From a virus (lineage: Duplodnaviria; Heunggongvirae; Uroviricota; Caudoviricetes), in the IMG/VR virus record IMGVR_UViG_2529292912_000006, positions 1 through 37,252 of that record: a DNA stretch of 37,252 nucleotides. The stretch is one strand, 5' to 3'. A program made the position numbers and the translations under genes. Positions 3,517-9,311 of this stretch are shown piece after piece. Positions within the stretch are counted from its first letter, which is position 1. Each line of letters begins with the position of its first letter. The notes below the pieces were generated by a model, which worked only from the letters and a program-made list of their open reading frames with translations, had not been told where the DNA came from and searched no databases.

Positions 3517-4043
3517 TTGCGTAACTCCGATAACTCGTTAAAGCGTTCCATAAACATCCCGTAGGCATGGCCCGGTGCCAGTGGAATCACGTTGAACATC
3601 TCTGTTGCCGGGATACCTTCCAGTACAGGCCAGAAAGAGCCATCATCAAGCCCGAGATCGCGGCGTTCGGTTGCCAGCATGATGAGATCGGCATATTTCA
3701 CGGGCGTACTCATAACTGGGGGTAACCCGTATTTCTCACGGATTACGGCGTCTATTTTTTCTTCCATTTGTTTATAGTCAGGAAGAAGGCGTTTCAGTGG
3801 TGCGGGAATGTCCTGGCAATACGCTTCTGTTGCATCATGCATTAACGCTTCAAAAGCAAATTCCTGCGGCACCAGCTGGCTGCAAAGAACCGCATGTTGG
3901 GCGACGCTGTAGAAGTGCGAAAGATGACCGGCAAAGCGACAGATATTTGAAAGGGAAACCGCGATATCGTTAATATCGATGTCGTCTTTATTTATCCTGT
4001 CATAATAAAAATGCTTCCCGGAAAAAGTTTTAATAAATGACAT
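3507..4043 (-). CDS. HD-domain phosphohydrolase (YfdR-like, possible 5'-deoxynucleotidase)
   Basis: H…HD motif (…ALMHDATEAY…); internal ATG at 4043 chosen because it is preceded by GGAGA (the track ORF start at 4070 has no SD); gives 178 aa. Confidence 0.7.
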   Translation of the reverse strand: MSFIKTFSGKHFYYDRINKDDIDINDIAVSLSNICRFAGHLSHFYSVAQHAVLCSQLVPQEFAFEALMHDATEAYCQDIPAPLKRLLPDYKQMEEKIDAVIREKYGLPPVMSTPVKYADLIMLATERRDLGLDDGSFWPVLEGIPATEMFNVIPLAPGHAYGMFMERFNELSELRKCA

Positions 4044-4170
4044 TTTGTTCTCCACGTATATGCGCTGCACCGCGCTGAATTCTGGTAAAAAGAATCCCTC
4101 ACCATCCGGCGATTATTGAGTAAATTACGTTTCCATAAATGCCCCCGCAGGGGCATTTGCAGTAATGAAA

Positions 4171-4995
4171 TCAGGCGGTGAAAGTACCAATAAAGGTTTC
4201 TACTTTGCTGTCCTTGAATTTCTCAACAAGCAGATCACGAAATTCGTTAGCCATTTCTTCCTGCACCGCCTCCAGCTGAATAATGCGCAGAACCAGTACC
4301 GGACGATCGCCAGTGATAATGCTGAGGCGTAATTTAAACGGACGTTCTTTCAGACCTTCAAACGGAATGCATTTAAATTCAAATGCCACTGGCATAATGT
4401 CTTTGGTCTTCGCTTCGACAGACTCCATCAGGGAGCGTTTGCCGCTGAAGTCATTATCTTCAAAATCAGCGGTCTGATTTGCTTCAATCGTGATTTTACG
4501 GACCGCCGCAGCCGCTTTTGTTGCCTGAATGGTGTCACCATTAGCATCAAAGCCCACAAGGTAGTCGGCCCAGTCTTCAATCCATTCTGCCAGTGATTTC
4601 TGGGAGTTACGCTCGCCATTAACAGACAACAGAGCAGAGAACGGTGCTGTCTTTTTCAGTTTGAGAGTGGCGGTGTTATCTGCGTGACCTGGTTCATCAA
4701 TAGTACCCAGGTTAAGCACACTGACGGCACGCATATTATCAGCATCGATAAAGCAGCGGGTGCCTTCATCTGCAAGATCTTTAGAATAACGGGTAAAGTC
4801 ATCGATGCTGGCAGTGGAAAGCGCACCACGGAAACGGAAGCGATTTAAATTAAATTTTTCCAGATCATGAATGCGGAAATTCTCAGGCAATGCCACAGCA
4901 TCGGCACCAATCTTACTGATAATTTCATTAACACCCTGAGCAGAAATAAGGGCATGGATTTGATTAATTGCGGTTGCGTCTAAGTTCTGAGACAT
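4171..4995 (-). CDS. DUF2303-family phage protein (YfdQ-like), 274 aa
   Basis: Long clean ORF in the leftward early operon; length and position match the yfdQ-type protein of CPS-53-like prophages (memory-based). Confidence 0.6.
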
Positions 4996-5060
4996 AATAA
5001 GTCCTCACTATATAAAGATATTCAGTGATGAGATAAATAATCAGTTAATTAAGAACGATA

Positions 5061-5423
5061 TTAATGACCTGCTGCGCGGAGTTTTCCGTCAGGTTCACCG
5101 GCAAGAGTCAGTAATTGTCCCTGGTCTTCCTGCAGAATAGTCAGGCGACCACCGCGATTGACATACATCGGCGTTTCGGTGGTGTCTTCTTCGGAAATTT
5201 TCCCGCGGTTAGTCGGGCGAACATATGAGAGTTTGTGTTTGATTTTCACACGGTTCTCATCAAATGGTTCGATTTCTAGGTTGAGTGAGACCTTACCTTT
5301 GGTTTTCGTGTTCATCACACCGGAAGCGACTTCACTGAGAACTGCGCCGATTTTGGTTTCAAATACGCCGCCGTCCAGCTCCCCGATAAATGCCTGCACA
5401 TCAGTACTGCGTTCGCTAGCCAT
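5061..5423 (-). CDS. Hypothetical early protein (YfdP-like), 120 aa from the internal start
   Basis: Internal ATG at 5423 is preceded by GAGGAG with a 6-nt spacer; the track ORF extends to 5453. Confidence 0.5.
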   Translation of the reverse strand: MASERSTDVQAFIGELDGGVFETKIGAVLSEVASGVMNTKTKGKVSLNLEIEPFDENRVKIKHKLSYVRPTNRGKISEEDTTETPMYVNRGGRLTILQEDQGQLLTLAGEPDGKLRAAGH

Positions 5424-5453
5424 TTGCTGCTCCTCATCATATCGACCCTGCAA

Positions 5454-5859
5454 GGCCGATTAGTTTCTCCACAAAACAGAGAAGAACACCTGCGGTGGCA
5501 GCCGCCCGGATGGATTGGGTTATGAGCCCGTCGTCCGGTGATGCTCTTCTCTGTTTTGTAAAAAGGACGGTACCAGCCGGAAGCAAGGGTACAAACTGGT
5601 ACCGCCAGGACTACACACAGCATAAAGTTGTGGTGCCGGGTGCCTCCCGGTGCCTGGCGAAGGTTGCACACCAGACGGGTGGGTATCCACAGAAGGTCGA
5701 CTGTCAGCCTCAACCTTAACCCGCGTGCGCTGAGCCGCATTCACCACAACGCTAAGGATTCTCTTTGGTTGAAAATACTTAGCTGTTATGTGCCTGTCTT
5801 TTCACCACTTCAGGCTCGGTGGTATCCTTTTAAGCCCGTATACATAAAAGGAAAATCAA
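5454..5859. other. GC-rich structured non-coding region (candidate ncRNA or cis-regulatory RNA element)
   Basis: About 400 bp with no protein-like ORF in any frame; 14-bp perfect inverted repeat (5471-5484 with 5546-5559) plus further local hairpins. Confidence 0.3.
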
Positions 5860-6105
5860 ATGACTTTTGATGAAAAAGAACTTGATAATGCAATTAATAA
5901 AATCATCGTAACGTCGCTCTTTTCCTGTCTCAGCGACACTCAGCAGAAACAGTTCTACGAATCGGCTTTCAACATGATCGAGCGTTGTTGTTTCTGCGAT
6001 GCCGACGAGTTACCTGAAAAAATCAGGAAACAGTTGGCTGATGCTCTTCGAGTGCGACTTTCTGACCAATTTTCTGAAATGTGCTCTCCGAATTTGGACA
6101 AATAG
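5860..6105 (+). CDS. Hypothetical small protein (81 aa)
   Basis: Strong SD (AAAGGAAAATCAA-ATG); only plus-strand gene in a minus-strand region; contains a CCFCD motif. Confidence 0.4.
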   Translation: MTFDEKELDNAINKIIVTSLFSCLSDTQQKQFYESAFNMIERCCFCDADELPEKIRKQLADALRVRLSDQFSEMCSPNLDK

Positions 6106-6319
6106 AAAAAGGCCATTTCCATTCAGGGTCTGATGGAAATACTTCAGCCTGTTCCAAAGCACGGCGTAAAGAGAACACAACTCCAGCCATAATCTGATGT
6201 TTCCCATTGGTCCAGCTATCGCCGCTCTGATCTACAGGGGCGGCTATGTCGTATGACCAAACGACTTCACAGTTATTGTTTAAAATCTGGACTTTCATTT
6301 CATACACCTGCTTTAACAT
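6023..6319 (-). CDS. Hypothetical protein (91-98 aa), first gene downstream of putative OL/pL
   Basis: ORF with a possible AGGTG SD before the internal ATG at 6298; its 3' end overlaps the plus-strand 81-aa ORF; coding status uncertain. Confidence 0.3.
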   Translation of the reverse strand: MLKQVYEMKVQILNNNCEVVWSYDIAAPVDQSGDSWTNGKHQIMAGVVFSLRRALEQAEVFPSDPEWKWPFSICPNSESTFQKIGQKVALEEHQPTVS

Positions 6320-6427
6320 GAGTGCCTAGTGGCACAACATGACTCAACGAATCATCCTGGACTTCATATGCCCCAGGCGGCTACTTCGTGGGCGTCCTGC
6401 CTGTTCGTTGTCGTTAAAATAATTCTG

Positions 6428-6463
6428 CTACCAAAAGTAGCAAAAATCAACAACTAAAAGTAG
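6428..6463. promoter_or_regulatory. Putative OL operator pair
   Basis: CTACCAAAAGTAG (6428-6440) and CTAAAAGTAG (6454-6463), 23 bp apart, same motif and spacing as the OR pair at 8367-8402. Confidence 0.4.
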
Positions 6464-6564
6464 ATAATTTGTTTGGTATGCGTTGATGCGTTTAATGCTT
6501 TGAATTTAATATGTTTTTTAAATGTGTTGTGATGTGATTCAAGACAAAGGGGGGGCGTTTGTAT

Positions 6565-6590
6565 AGAAAAAAACCGGCATAAAGCCGGTT
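6565..6590 (-). terminator. Intrinsic terminator ending the cI-downstream operon
   Basis: On the minus strand the stop codon is followed by a GC hairpin (CCGGC-loop-GCCGG) and a run of 7 T. Confidence 0.65.
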
Positions 6591-7222
6591 TAGTTTGCTT
6601 TTCCCTGCGGAGGTAATACTTGTGGAGTAATTGGTTCTTGGTTGAGATGTTTAACACTTGATTGTTGTGTAACTGGTTGAACTACTGGCGAAGTATCTTT
6701 AAAAGCAGAAATTATGCTAGGTAATGCAACTATGACCGCAATGATAACTCCAAAAATAGCAAGTCTGGTAGAAATTCCAGATTGAATACCACTAATGGCT
6801 GTATTTATTCCAGTAATTTGGCCTTGTATACCTTCGAATCTACCATTGATGGCCTTCACATCCCCGTCAACACTGTCCATTTTGCCTTCGATTTTCGAAG
6901 AGATAGAATTGATGGCTGAATTTAGAGATGCTAGCTGAACGTTTGTGTTCTCGCGAGATAAAGCCATTTCAACTCTAATAGAGGATGCAATGGACTCCAT
7001 TTCTGCTTTATTGGCAGCTAAAAGTGCTTGAATTTCTTCTCGACTAACTGATGACATTTTATTTCCCCCATCAGTTTTGTAAGTTTCATCTGCGGATTCG
7101 ATAAAATCAGTATACATTTCTTCTATACCGACGCGCAGCCTGTTCTTAACATTGGGGTAAAGGTCACACTTATCAATACCAGATCCACAGTTTGGTACTG
7201 CTCTGAGATAAGGTCGCGTCAT
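6590..7222 (-). CDS. Coiled-coil membrane protein (210 aa), rexB-position gene
   Basis: SD GAGGA before ATG at 7222; heptad-like repeats (…INSISSKIEGKMDSVDGDVKAINGRFEGIQGQITGINTAISGIQSGI…) then hydrophobic helix (LAIFGVIIAVIVALPSIISAF) and Pro/Gln-rich tail; AT-rich. Confidence 0.6.
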   Translation of the reverse strand: MTRPYLRAVPNCGSGIDKCDLYPNVKNRLRVGIEEMYTDFIESADETYKTDGGNKMSSVSREEIQALLAANKAEMESIASSIRVEMALSRENTNVQLASLNSAINSISSKIEGKMDSVDGDVKAINGRFEGIQGQITGINTAISGIQSGISTRLAIFGVIIAVIVALPSIISAFKDTSPVVQPVTQQSSVKHLNQEPITPQVLPPQGKAN

Positions 7223-7240
7223 TTCCCATCCTCTTCTTTT

Positions 7241-7579
7241 TCATTTTTCTTTTTGGATCAATGATCTAGCTTTTTTATAAGAAAAAAGAAGTACATGTGC
7301 ACAGTGATCACAGGTGATTCGAAACAGCGGCATACCACCAGGATAATTTATAGCGCTATCAGTTTCAGGTTTGTATTGGGCATAGCTGAGAACTTCGATT
7401 ACGTGATGTTTTGGCTGATTGTCTTCAACTTCAAGTTCTAGAGTACCGACTACACTCCATGATTGATTTCCGCAAATTTGGCAAATTAAAGGCTTTTTGA
7501 AAGAGTTTATGAAATCAATAAACTCATCTGCAGTGATAATTTCTGAATTTGCTTCGCTATGAAATAGTTCAGATTTCAT
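7241..7579 (-). CDS. Small zinc-ribbon-like protein (112 aa), rexA-position gene
   Basis: AAGGA SD; two Cys pairs (CQIC … CDHC); immediately downstream of the repressor gene on the same strand; AT-rich. Confidence 0.55.
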   Translation of the reverse strand: MKSELFHSEANSEIITADEFIDFINSFKKPLICQICGNQSWSVVGTLELEVEDNQPKHHVIEVLSYAQYKPETDSAINYPGGMPLFRITCDHCAHVLLFSYKKARSLIQKEK

Positions 7580-7623
7580 TATTATTATCCTTTTAGATCT
7601 TTTAATCCTGAAAGGATTGAGTT

Positions 7624-8328
7624 TTACAATCGGTTGTATTTTATAGATTCGTGAATCAACGCCTTGCCCATTACATAAAGCTGATCCTGCGATTTTTCAT
7701 CGATGTACCATTTCTCATAGGCGGGGTTATCCGAAAGAACGGCTAGCTTGTCACCTTGCATTTGAAGACGTTTGACATGAAAAGTCTTACCGTAAACGAA
7801 AGAGTAAACTCCATCAGTCTGGAAGTGACGAACAGAAATGTCGACAAACAGTCGGTCTCCGGAAACGAGTGTAGGGGACATACTATCGCCATTTACAGTC
7901 ATAACCTTAATATCATTCTGAGAACGGTTGCCGAAAAGAGAACGGGCATGTTCTGTTGTGAACTCAATGGCGTAGAGCACATCAACATAGTCTGAAAGCA
8001 TATAGGTCCCAGGTCCTGCGCTAACGCTAAGATCCAAAACTTCTATCCTGTATACATCGGGTTTCGTTGGATTGGGGATGCTTGCCATTTCCTTACATCC
8101 TTCTCTCTCGCCAACACCATATTCTAAATATGAAGCTGATACCCCCAGAGCCAATGCAAGTTTATTCATGACAGAGGCACGAGGCTTCGCAGCGCCGATT
8201 GTGTATCGCCGCGCCATTTCATATGTAACGCCCACAAGACTTTTGAGTTGGGTGACAGAAATTCCCTTGTTTGTCATTAGCTCGTTTAGTCTCTTGGCGA
8301 AATCTGGATACTTCTGTTCTTCTACCAT
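7624..8328 (-). CDS. CI-type prophage repressor (HTH plus S24 LexA-like peptidase domain)
   Basis: HTH (…NELMTNKGISVTQLKSLVGVT…), Ala-Gly cleavage site, GDSM serine motif and VKRL lysine motif. Start set at ATG 8328 because the track start (8385) lies between the two operator repeats; 8364 is also possible. Confidence 0.85.
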   Translation of the reverse strand: MVEEQKYPDFAKRLNELMTNKGISVTQLKSLVGVTYEMARRYTIGAAKPRASVMNKLALALGVSASYLEYGVGEREGCKEMASIPNPTKPDVYRIEVLDLSVSAGPGTYMLSDYVDVLYAIEFTTEHARSLFGNRSQNDIKVMTVNGDSMSPTLVSGDRLFVDISVRHFQTDGVYSFVYGKTFHVKRLQMQGDKLAVLSDNPAYEKWYIDEKSQDQLYVMGKALIHESIKYNRL

Positions 8329-8366
8329 AGGTAGAAGATTACTCACATCACATACACTAGTCATTT

Positions 8367-8426
8367 CTATTTTAAGTAGTTGCATTTTGCTATTTTAAGT
8401 AGCATCATCCCTCTGAATTTCAGAGG
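8367..8426. promoter_or_regulatory. Putative OR operator pair plus palindrome over the cro SD
   Basis: Two identical 13-bp imperfect palindromes CTATTTTAAGTAG at 8367-8379 and 8390-8402 (23 bp apart); 17-bp perfect palindrome CCTCTGAA-T-TTCAGAGG at 8410-8426. Confidence 0.5.
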
Positions 8427-8434
8427 AGAAAGGT

Positions 8435-8698
8435 ATGTCATCTCAAAACTACACAGAGAAAGCAGTAAAGGCTGCGGGAAAATCTTTATCTGAAGTAGCC
8501 CGTCGCTTTGGTTTTAAGTCCACTCAATCCGTCGCTAATTGGGTAATTAACAATCAAGTCCCGTCAGAACGGGTTTTACAACTTTGTGAGTTGGGAAACT
8601 GGTCCGTGACCCCTCATGAACTGCGTCCTGATATTTACCCCAATCCAAATGATGGATTACCTGAGTGCTATTCAAAAGTTAGCGGTTCAGCTGCGTAA
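8435..8698 (+). CDS. Cro-like HTH regulator (YdaS family)
   Basis: Divergent from the repressor; SD GAGGAG; HTH (…LSEVARRFGFKSTQSVANWV…) followed by an …HELRPD… motif typical of YdaS-type Cro analogues. Confidence 0.7.
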   Translation: MSSQNYTEKAVKAAGKSLSEVARRFGFKSTQSVANWVINNQVPSERVLQLCELGNWSVTPHELRPDIYPNPNDGLPECYSKVSGSAA

Positions 8699-8726
8699 AC
8701 GTAACCACAGAAATGAGGAATTAACC

Positions 8727-9311
8727 GTGGGTAAAGAACCTGAATGGAAAGTTGATAAACAACCAGCATGGCTGGTGGCAGCAATACGAAGAACGATTGC
8801 TGATTTACCTCATGGCTATGAGGAAGCAGCAGAAATTCTTGGTTTGTATAAATCTGATGATATCACCCCAGCAAAAGATCAATTGCATAACAGACTGCGT
8901 AGCGGTGGGGATCAAATTTTTCCACTTGAGTGGGCCATGGTTTTACAGGATGCCAGTGGTACCAGGCATGTAACAGATGCAATAGCCCGTCGTAGTAATG
9001 GGGTGTTTGTGCCGCTGGTGGTCATTGATGACATTGACAATGGTGACATTAATCAGCGGCTGATGGAGTCAATAGAATGGATTGGCAAGCATTCCCAGTA
9101 CTTACGCAAGGCAACTGCTGATGGAGTTATTGACCAGGCTGAGCGTGAGCAAATCGAAGAGAACAGCTACCAAGTAATGGCGAAGTGGCAGGAGCATTTA
9201 ACACTGTTATTTCGTGTTTTTTGTGCACCGGAAAAGAGTAACGCCCGCGAGTGTGCAGCTCCGGGCGTCGTGGCGTCGATTGCTTCTGGTTGTGGAGAAA
9301 CTAACGCATGA
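8727..9311 (+). CDS. CII-analogue regulatory protein (YdaT-like), GTG start
   Basis: In-frame GTG at 8727 preceded by GAGGA; position directly after Cro; family assignment is memory-based. Confidence 0.45.
   Translation: MGKEPEWKVDKQPAWLVAAIRRTIADLPHGYEEAAEILGLYKSDDITPAKDQLHNRLRSGGDQIFPLEWAMVLQDASGTRHVTDAIARRSNGVFVPLVVIDDIDNGDINQRLMESIEWIGKHSQYLRKATADGVIDQAEREQIEENSYQVMAKWQEHLTLLFRVFCAPEKSNARECAAPGVVASIASGCGETNA

Follow-up and report, generated by a model that had tools for sequence, protein, structure and literature searches.

What does a prophage express from the interval between its repressor gene and its left operator (OL), where lambda keeps rexA and rexB? The cI-N interval is a hotspot of defence genes and mosaicism: it is occupied by rexAB in lambda and, in BTP1, by bstA, an abortive-infection gene (PMC8585504). 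We followed this question in a stretch of 37,252 nucleotides (positions 1 to 37,252 of the IMG/VR virus record IMGVR_UViG_2529292912_000006, hereafter the window), a lambdoid prophage of Escherichia coli, in which three open reading frames (ORFs) run in the same direction on the minus strand, namely a cI-like repressor, ORF1 and ORF2 (Table 1). A sequence-only reading of this DNA had described two AT-rich genes at 6590-7579 directly after cI on the same strand, and had suspected a membrane-acting exclusion or abortive-infection pair. The coordinates were confirmed, and the G+C content of the cassette is 37.3% against 51.1% for the whole window. We classify ORF1-ORF2 as an uncharacterised, modular, repressor-linked pair and as a good candidate for a prophage exclusion cassette of the kind that lies downstream of cI. 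The earlier interpretation is partly supported: its position and architecture hold, and the exclusion or abortive-infection function is one that we infer from that position and architecture. A large modular family, an altered 3' end of ORF1 and a conserved internal start in ORF2 were absent from that reading and are described below.

The 13-bp operator-like motif CWAYYWWAAGTAG gave 7 matches against 0.74 expected, confined to 6428-6463 and 8322-8402, so that the ORF1-ORF2 pair lies between cI and OL. This is the position of rexA-rexB in lambda, and the rexAB-equivalent slot proposed before was borne out, with operator-like clusters flanking the unit and, in phage HK542, an ORF2-family member between a lambda-like cI and the promoter PL. 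The good Shine-Dalgarno (SD) sequences reported for both genes were found as well (AAGGA, 8-12 nt ahead of the ORF1 ATG, and GAGGA ahead of the ORF2 ATG), and the terminator scan detected no terminator-like site in the cI-ORF1 interval. A strong intrinsic terminator just before OL is indeed present, at 6571-6591 by the scan rather than at 6565-6590 as claimed; it has an 8-bp stem with 5 G-C pairs and a T-run, and overlaps the ORF2 stop codon. Because PR points away from the pair and PL starts past this terminator, ORF1 and ORF2 should be transcribed from the repressor promoters only, and their expression would thus be expected in lysogeny. In lysogens this slot is highly transcribed, the promoter of the repressor being one of the most active that a prophage has (PMC8585504). 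Promoter-like matches at 7605-7578 and 7083-7056 were dismissed, since they are no commoner than in shuffled sequence and their predicted transcription starts lie 3' of the relevant ATGs. The latter, a sigma-70-like match (CTTACA-16-TAAAAT, 7056-7083, minus strand) inside ORF2 that overlaps an internal ATG from upstream, is probably noise; it is reminiscent of lambda, where rexB has an internal promoter. An Rfam scan of 5400-8800 returned no RNA family.

The linkage to a repressor recurs throughout the ORF2 family. A word-indexed search returned 40 ORF2 relatives, all from Enterobacterales where the organism was named, and a HMMER search against 1.84 billion cluster representatives gave at least 357 clusters (defined at 50% identity) with an E value of 1e-3 or less, including 114 at E ≤ 1e-10; most have a length of 140-270 amino acids (aa). 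Loci were gathered from contigs encoding relatives, from GTDB species genomes and from IMG/VR, with ORFs called uniformly. In 55 of the 66 distinct ORF2-family loci, the 3' end of a gene for a CI-like helix-turn-helix (HTH) repressor, encoded on the same strand, is at most 1.5 kb upstream, typically with exactly one small gene between the repressor and the ORF2 homologue, and Pfam searches of the ORFs upstream of ORF2-family genes identified HTH_3 in 43/60 and Peptidase_S24 in 33/60. In phages HK542 and HK244, an ORF2 homologue 77% identical over residues 55-175 lies between a CI annotated as lambda-like and PL, and the HK542 record has PRM and PL annotated on either side. The CI of HK542 is presumably nearly identical in sequence to lambda CI; if so, these phages carry the cassette where lambda has rexAB. 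By DNA search, the ORF2 family is present in 65 of 5426 complete E. coli genomes (about 1%), and all copies among the matches listed are annotated as "hypothetical".

A second cassette was found in the same slot. The repressor and cro of roughly 200 complete E. coli genomes are 94-99% identical to those of the window, and the window cassette is absent from them. Homology to same-repressor prophages covers 4000-6464 (98.3%) and 7625-8764 (94.7%) with none in between, and from the breaks at 6464/7625 the exchanged segment therefore extends exactly from the cI stop codon to OL. The sister cassette was read from two inspected same-repressor genomes, L013 (E. coli GB089) and L014. Its segment (L013, 3285-3984) encodes a 115-aa zinc-ribbon protein that also belongs to phrog_4293 (E = 5e-31), the family of ORF1, together with a 135-aa protein of phrog_3556, which combines a variable N-terminus with a coiled coil and has a transmembrane helix at its C-terminus. 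No homology between this protein and ORF2 was detectable, and thus two unrelated putative effectors share an architecture, a partner family and a slot. From the two genomes inspected, the sister cassette is put at a further roughly 4% of complete E. coli genomes. The phrog_3556 profile has 276 positions and was matched through its second half only, so longer or fused versions may exist.

In PHROGs, ORF2 matched only phrog_5820 (E = 3.6e-68) and ORF1 only phrog_4293 (E = 1.3e-31), both of unknown function. The description of ORF2 as a 210-aa coiled-coil protein with one transmembrane helix and a Pro/Gln-rich tail was confirmed by its heptads, by hydropathy and by AlphaFold2 (AF2). A single heptad register extends from about residue 99 to 175 and so runs through the transmembrane helix, with Ile/Val/Phe at the a/d positions flanked by Gly/Ser/Ala, and the charge map indicates that residues 131-152 carry no charge and are strongly amphipathic. 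The AF2 monomer consists of a long helix at 61-114 with a predicted local distance difference test score (pLDDT) of about 85, a Gly-rich helical stretch and the transmembrane helix, the N-terminus and the tail being disordered. Alignment of the family shows that the first 20-110 residues are hypervariable, and that the conserved core is made up of SREEL..NKAE..WRE, the Gly-rich heptads, GINTAISGIQSGIST and the transmembrane helix, followed in most members by the tail motif QPIIIQVP. Most homologues keep this tail motif, even some that are 80% identical, but the E. coli lineage of the window has SSVKHLN in its place (6630-6665, residues about 186-198).

Beta-branched residues at a/d positions favour trimeric coiled coils, and ORF2 had weak matches to trimeric coiled coils of HA2, reovirus sigma-1 and a YadA-like protein; the coiled coil of ORF2 is probably parallel and trimeric. 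Since the protein lacks a signal peptide and its first 150 or so residues are hydrophilic, it is likely oriented N-in/C-out, with a cytoplasmic rod, a tail anchor and a short periplasmic Pro/Gln tail. The Gly-rich heptad segment also matched many repeats in three very long proteins (P0084, P0116 and P0133, all distant matches by hidden Markov model), whose source names are YadA-like adhesin, zinc-ribbon protein and CwlO-like hydrolase, which suggests a widely used type of trimeric-stalk repeat and not homology of function.

For ORF1, the 112-aa protein with CQIC…CDHC was likewise confirmed. All four cysteines (C33/C36 and C90/C93) are invariant in relatives down to 55% identity, and the two CxxC pairs are also kept in distant phrog_4293 members. 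The AF2 monomer, of low confidence (pLDDT about 60), has a helix, zinc-ribbon strands and a C-terminal helix. As the conserved CxxC pairs lie on predicted beta-hairpin knuckles, this model assigns ORF1 to the zinc ribbons, with metal binding as a prediction. Comparison with relatives gave a non-synonymous divergence (pN) of 0.295 against a synonymous divergence (pS) of 0.835 for ORF1, and a pN of 0.10-0.21 against a pS of 0.80-0.91 for the ORF2 core, where the relatives had saturated synonymous sites. Because pN is far below pS and the cysteines of ORF1 are invariant, ORF1 and ORF2 are, by this comparison, real genes under purifying selection.

The 3' end of ORF1 differs in the window. Other full-length copies examined encode about 118-127 aa, and in the annotated near-identical copy a 120-aa ORF1 overlaps ORF2 by ATGA. 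The A5-G-A5 tract of the window is 2 nt shorter than in near-identical copies, which leads to an earlier ORF1 stop and an 18-nt spacer in place of the ATGA overlap, and the near-identical IMG/VR copy L023 has a third length and frame variant; the remaining near-identical copies encode a 120-aa ORF1. With three length variants, the tract is therefore indel-prone or error-prone, and the variation could reflect sequencing error, natural slippage or an on/off variation of translational coupling. Programmed frameshifting was dropped as an explanation, there being, by eye, no canonical X XXY YYZ slippery site in the ORF1 frame.

We found that the gene directly upstream of ORF2 homologues is closely coupled to them, by a 1-17 nt overlap (often ATGA) or a gap of a few nucleotides, and that no fewer than four unrelated families supply it. 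That of the window, the zinc-ribbon family, is linked to a second CxxC...CxxC cluster by hhalign (92% probability) and by PHROGs, another family is beta-rich and of about 144 aa (phrog_5893, with 21 distinct members and distant relatives), and two further families of about 100 aa have 14 and 10 members. The clusters of ORF2 N-termini track the partner clusters (adjusted Rand index 0.875, n = 64). The HK542 gp35 pair and HK244 orf04-05 illustrate this pattern: they contain a true ORF2 homologue in the same slot with ATGA coupling, and the core of ORF2 is 77% identical to that of HK542, but both the partner (144 aa, beta-rich, phrog_5893) and the N-extension are unrelated to those of the window. 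These proteins are likewise uncharacterised. A Xenorhabdus form without the small partner gene begins exactly at the core, and so is also without the N-extension. Since the N-terminus tracks the partner and the partner-less form has no N-extension, we read the partner and the ORF2 N-extension as one functional unit, most simply as a docking pair. This core-only member of 146 aa, seen in Xenorhabdus bovienii (L009, 4001-4441) and in L061, follows an ORF6N-domain protein and Arc-type repressors and stands beside tail/baseplate genes, which is not a cI-slot context.

The boundary between N-extension and core also carries a candidate internal start. An in-frame ATG or GTG is present there in all 46 distinct junction sequences, 12-17 codons before NKAE, and where the residue at this position is Val, its codon is GTG in 11/11 junction types, compared with 22% GTG among all Val codons of these genes. 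A properly spaced SD-like motif precedes this start in 34 of 45 N-extension junctions versus 1.8% of background windows (nominal binomial p 1e-49, inflated by relatedness). The partner-less Xenorhabdus gene begins at the equivalent position, and the non-homologous sister effector has GGAGG-N7-ATG where its coiled coil begins. Given the conservation of an internal SD and of ATG/GTG at the core boundary, ORF2 is probably made as two predicted isoforms of 210 aa and 155 aa.

Searches against known families gave little for either protein. Pfam (E ≤ 1), NCBIfam and PADLOC returned nothing above threshold for ORF1 and ORF2 apart from sub-threshold coiled-coil or zinc-ribbon noise, and in PADLOC-DB v2 ORF1 had no match and ORF2 only coiled-coil noise (PbeC, E = 0.0013; PDC-S06, E = 0.019). 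The remark that neither protein resembles RexA/RexB or SieB agrees with these scans, in which Pfam and PADLOC gave no Rex family match at E ≤ 1 and no SieB match for either ORF. No toxin or antitoxin family was matched in Pfam, NCBIfam or PADLOC, and neither a holin nor XhlA in Pfam at E ≤ 1. Structure prediction and remote-homology searches yielded weak AF2 models and placed neither protein: fold searches with the AF2 models, including Foldseek against the PDB, found nothing, and sequence and profile searches of the PDB gave weak coiled-coil or pore-former matches only. Literature searches retrieved no description of the ORF2 family, and nothing was obtained when phage genomes were searched for near-identical copies of the whole region, or from tblastn of ORF1 against phages. 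YmfJ of e14, encoded downstream of the e14 repressor in K-12, was rejected as a relative, having no CxxC pairs and no hydrophobic C-terminal helix.

Among the weak matches, the GINTAISG...transmembrane segment of ORF2 aligned repeatedly, always sub-threshold, with ClyA-family pore formers over their helix and hydrophobic head (AhlB, E = 0.005; SmhB, E = 0.02; MakE, E = 3e-4). These matches are no more than a lead, and they are not independent, because the toxins are homologous to one another. ORF2 shares with the ClyA-family B components (AhlB, SmhB, MakE, NheB) a long helix leading into a Gly/Ala-rich hydrophobic head (GINxAIxG..., E = 3e-4 to 0.02), whereas those proteins have about 360 aa, a helical-bundle tail and a two-helix head, and the ORF2 core has about 115 aa and one hydrophobic helix. 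Unlike these toxins, ORF2 is not secreted. ClyA-type matches in the PDB reached only E = 0.005-0.18 over about 90-130 residues, with no full-length fold of ~350 aa, and the NCBIfam score for MakE was 19.9 bits, far under the cut-off of 360.

Among characterised systems, RexA/RexB of lambda is similar in layout: both pairs occupy the cI-to-OL slot on the cI strand with a closing terminator, in both a gene for a soluble protein is followed by one for a membrane protein, and a stoichiometry-sensitive logic would be plausible for the window pair through its two predicted isoforms. There is, however, no sequence similarity, and RexA has 279 aa while the ORF2 partners have 84-165 aa and come from several unrelated families. 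BstA of BTP1 is similarly encoded directly downstream of a prophage repressor, with promoter sharing presumed and the repressor link conserved across genera (PMC8585504); it differs in being a single large cytoplasmic DNA-binding protein, non-homologous to the window pair, which has a membrane component. As in lambda S105/S107, two in-frame starts are predicted to give a longer and a shorter membrane protein whose ratio could gate permeabilisation, but the starts are 2 codons apart in S and 55 in ORF2, the ORF2 extension is a proposed docking segment, ORF2 lies in the immunity region and not in the lysis cassette, and the sequences are not similar. Judged by sequence, ORF1-ORF2 is outside the Rex, Sie, BstA, holin and ClyA families and all PADLOC families.

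Taken together, we tentatively propose, with a probability of roughly 0.4, that ORF1-ORF2 is a lysogen-expressed moron cassette encoding a two-component, membrane-acting phage-exclusion system with Rex-like logic. A conserved membrane effector combined with a variable cytoplasmic partner and adaptor is a pattern typical of sensor-plus-effector immune systems, and by this analogy the pair might work as follows. The repressor promoters would transcribe the pair, so that both proteins would be present in lysogens. ORF2 would be inserted N-in/C-out; its coiled coil, parallel and probably trimeric, would form a rod about 14 nm long that continues in register into a transmembrane bundle, and the protein would be made both as the 210-aa form with the N-terminal extension and as the 155-aa core-only form from Met56. 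The small soluble partner, a zinc ribbon in the window, would dock on the N-terminal extension and serve as the specificity or sensor module. An incoming phage would perturb the partner, upon which the conserved ORF2 core might be released or reorganised and change its state; the uncharged amphipathic stretch 131-152 and the transmembrane helix could then compromise the inner membrane, and the infection would be aborted. The ratio of long to short isoform may set the threshold, comparable to holin/antiholin pairs or to the RexA:RexB ratio. A broader version, which we regard as doubtful, is that such cassettes form a widespread repressor-linked class of prophage immunity with swappable sensors (zinc-ribbon, beta-rich and others), a co-varying adaptor and a trimeric tail-anchored effector gated by the isoform ratio, to which at least two unrelated effector families would have converged, and whose logic would combine Rex-like sensing with holin/antiholin-like control.

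Several observations weigh against this proposal. Neither ORF has significant similarity to characterised defence proteins in PADLOC, and the AF2 monomer models of both are of low confidence (pLDDT about 60). RexB has four transmembrane segments, unlike ORF2 with its one hydrophobic helix in a single-pass, tail-anchored coiled coil, and the pore-former similarity, under every curated threshold, may be just that of a coiled coil followed by a hydrophobic stretch. Partner and N-terminus are encoded side by side, and their co-variation could therefore in part reflect linked inheritance. The window copy could be impaired, given the altered 3' end of its ORF1. Moreover, the conserved periplasmic QPIIIQVP, degenerate in the window copy, hints at a periplasmic role that an abortive model does not explain.

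This last point would favour a Sie-type envelope exclusion, in which ORF2 sits constitutively in the inner membrane and blocks DNA entry with its transmembrane helix and periplasmic tail, the partner being an assembly factor or chaperone. The location predicts lysogen expression here too, ORF2 is a single-pass membrane protein with a periplasmic motif conserved in most homologues, and the prophage exclusion proteins known to act in this way are small and reside in the inner membrane (T4 Imm, HK97 gp15, P22 SieA). We nevertheless consider this unlikely, since it is the cytoplasmic partner and N-terminus that vary and the membrane and periplasmic parts that are conserved, the reverse of what matching diverse injection machines would call for; a cytoplasmic coiled coil of about 95 residues and two isoforms would be left unexplained, and the periplasmic motif is lost in the E. 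coli lineage of the window. Less likely again is a toxin-antitoxin-like module for addiction or prophage maintenance, with ORF2 as a toxin neutralised by the coupled partner, which would stabilise the prophage or tune its induction. Small membrane toxins are common, and two small, tightly coupled genes that overlap in relatives by 1-17 nt, often as ATGA, with the partner specifically paired with the effector N-terminus, would suit such a module. A sensor would account equally well, however, for the gene order and for a variable "antitoxin" matched to the N-extension alone, and the form without partner and N-extension has no obvious neutraliser; nor did Pfam, NCBIfam or PADLOC reveal any similarity to known toxin-antitoxin families. 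As many toxin-antitoxin pairs also act as abortive-infection systems, this alternative overlaps with the exclusion system proposed above.

Further down in probability we place a lysogenic conversion unrelated to phages, in which the cassette would have an envelope, stress or host-interaction role, or would modulate a host membrane protease or regulator that feeds the lysis-lysogeny decision. With its high AT content the cassette looks like a moron, and host-fitness factors of many kinds are encoded by morons. BstA was first linked to virulence phenotypes (PMC8585504). Against this improbable role, the close, recurrent repressor linkage and the modular, sensor-like partner are more typical of defence cassettes, and no domain indicates a host target. 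Least probable of all, and very much so, is a lysis role in the phage's own lytic cycle, as a holin/antiholin-like or XhlA-like dual-start coiled-coil membrane protein. The architecture of ORF2, with one transmembrane helix and a conserved, predicted dual start, may resemble that of tail-anchored coiled-coil lysis accessory proteins. But ORF2 is encoded on the cI strand, within the cI-OL interval and before the terminator, where transcription from PR or PL cannot read it in sense, and a lysis cassette stands apart from it in the window; in the homologous copy, the genes of that cassette are annotated as holin, endolysin and spanin.

In the immunity region around the ORF1-ORF2 cassette, the repressor matched Peptidase_S24 (E = 1.9e-16) and HTH_3 (E = 2e-5) in Pfam and phrog_4 (transcriptional repressor) in PHROGs, and a cII/YmfL-like gene (Pfam, PHROGs), like the cro-like gene, is divergent from it. 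The cI start is ambiguous: the mechanical ORF begins at an ATG at 8385 (253 aa), within the operator/promoter region, and in RefSeq homologues the start is taken at the 8328 ATG (234 aa), itself overlapping the third operator-like site (8322-8334). The region is 99.8% identical to a prophage of strain 23CRST010, which adjoins a truncated tRNA-dihydrouridine synthase gene. The stretch 5315-5750, which lies left of the early-left genes, is rich in G+C (up to 54%) and contains only overlapping, low-quality ORFs; slightly further left, at about 5430-5750 in window numbering, the 99.8% identical RefSeq copy has a "frameshifted hypothetical protein" annotated.

Table 1 Coordinates of the features in and around the ORF1-ORF2 cassette (window numbering)
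Feature	Position	Strand	Basis
ORF2, predicted tail-anchored coiled-coil membrane protein, phrog_5820	6590..7222	-	210 aa; hydropathy, AF2, PHROGs, family alignment
ORF2 residues 1-55, variable N-terminal extension (proposed partner-docking segment)	7058..7222	-	hypervariable in family alignment
ORF2 residues 57-153, conserved predicted coiled coil	6764..7054	-	heptad layout, charge map, AF2, invariant columns
ORF2 residues 154-175, single predicted transmembrane helix	6698..6763	-	hydropathy peak 150-173; conserved L154, F157, A162, A166
ORF2 residues 176-210, Pro/Gln-rich tail, presumed periplasmic	6593..6697	-	family alignment columns 301-354
Putative internal ribosome-binding site GGGGG (7065-7069) and in-frame ATG, Met56 (7055-7057)	7055..7069	-	predicts a 155-aa core-only isoform
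ORF1, predicted soluble zinc-ribbon partner, phrog_4293	7241..7579	-	112 aa in the window; 120 aa in annotated near-identical copy
A5-G-A5 tract, 3' end of ORF1	7244..7254	-	alignment with NZ_AP045768; IMG/VR locus L023
Mosaic module open to exchange, comprising ORF1, ORF2, the terminator and a further 100 nt or so	6465..7624	-	homology breaks against same-repressor prophages
Intrinsic terminator closing the cI-ORF1-ORF2 unit	6571..6591	-	terminator scan
OL, two operator-like 13-mers with 23 bp spacing	6428..6463	n/a	motif scan
OR (right operator), three operator-like 13-mers in the interval between cI and the cro-like gene	8322..8402	n/a	motif scan
cI-like prophage repressor, HTH_3 and Peptidase_S24	7624..8328	-	Pfam, PHROGs, RefSeq annotation of 99.8% identical copy
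Divergent cro-like gene, YdaS family HTH	8435..8698	+	Pfam YdaS_toxin, E = 4.6e-11; phrog_35

If the proposed exclusion function is true, a compact, modular, membrane-acting system would be added to prophage defences. To our knowledge, the coupling of sensing to membrane damage is still debated for Rex after more than 60 years. Built from a swappable partner, an adaptor to match it and a conserved effector that is predicted to occur as two isoforms, the ORF2 family would offer a tractable handle on how phage sensing is coupled to membrane damage.

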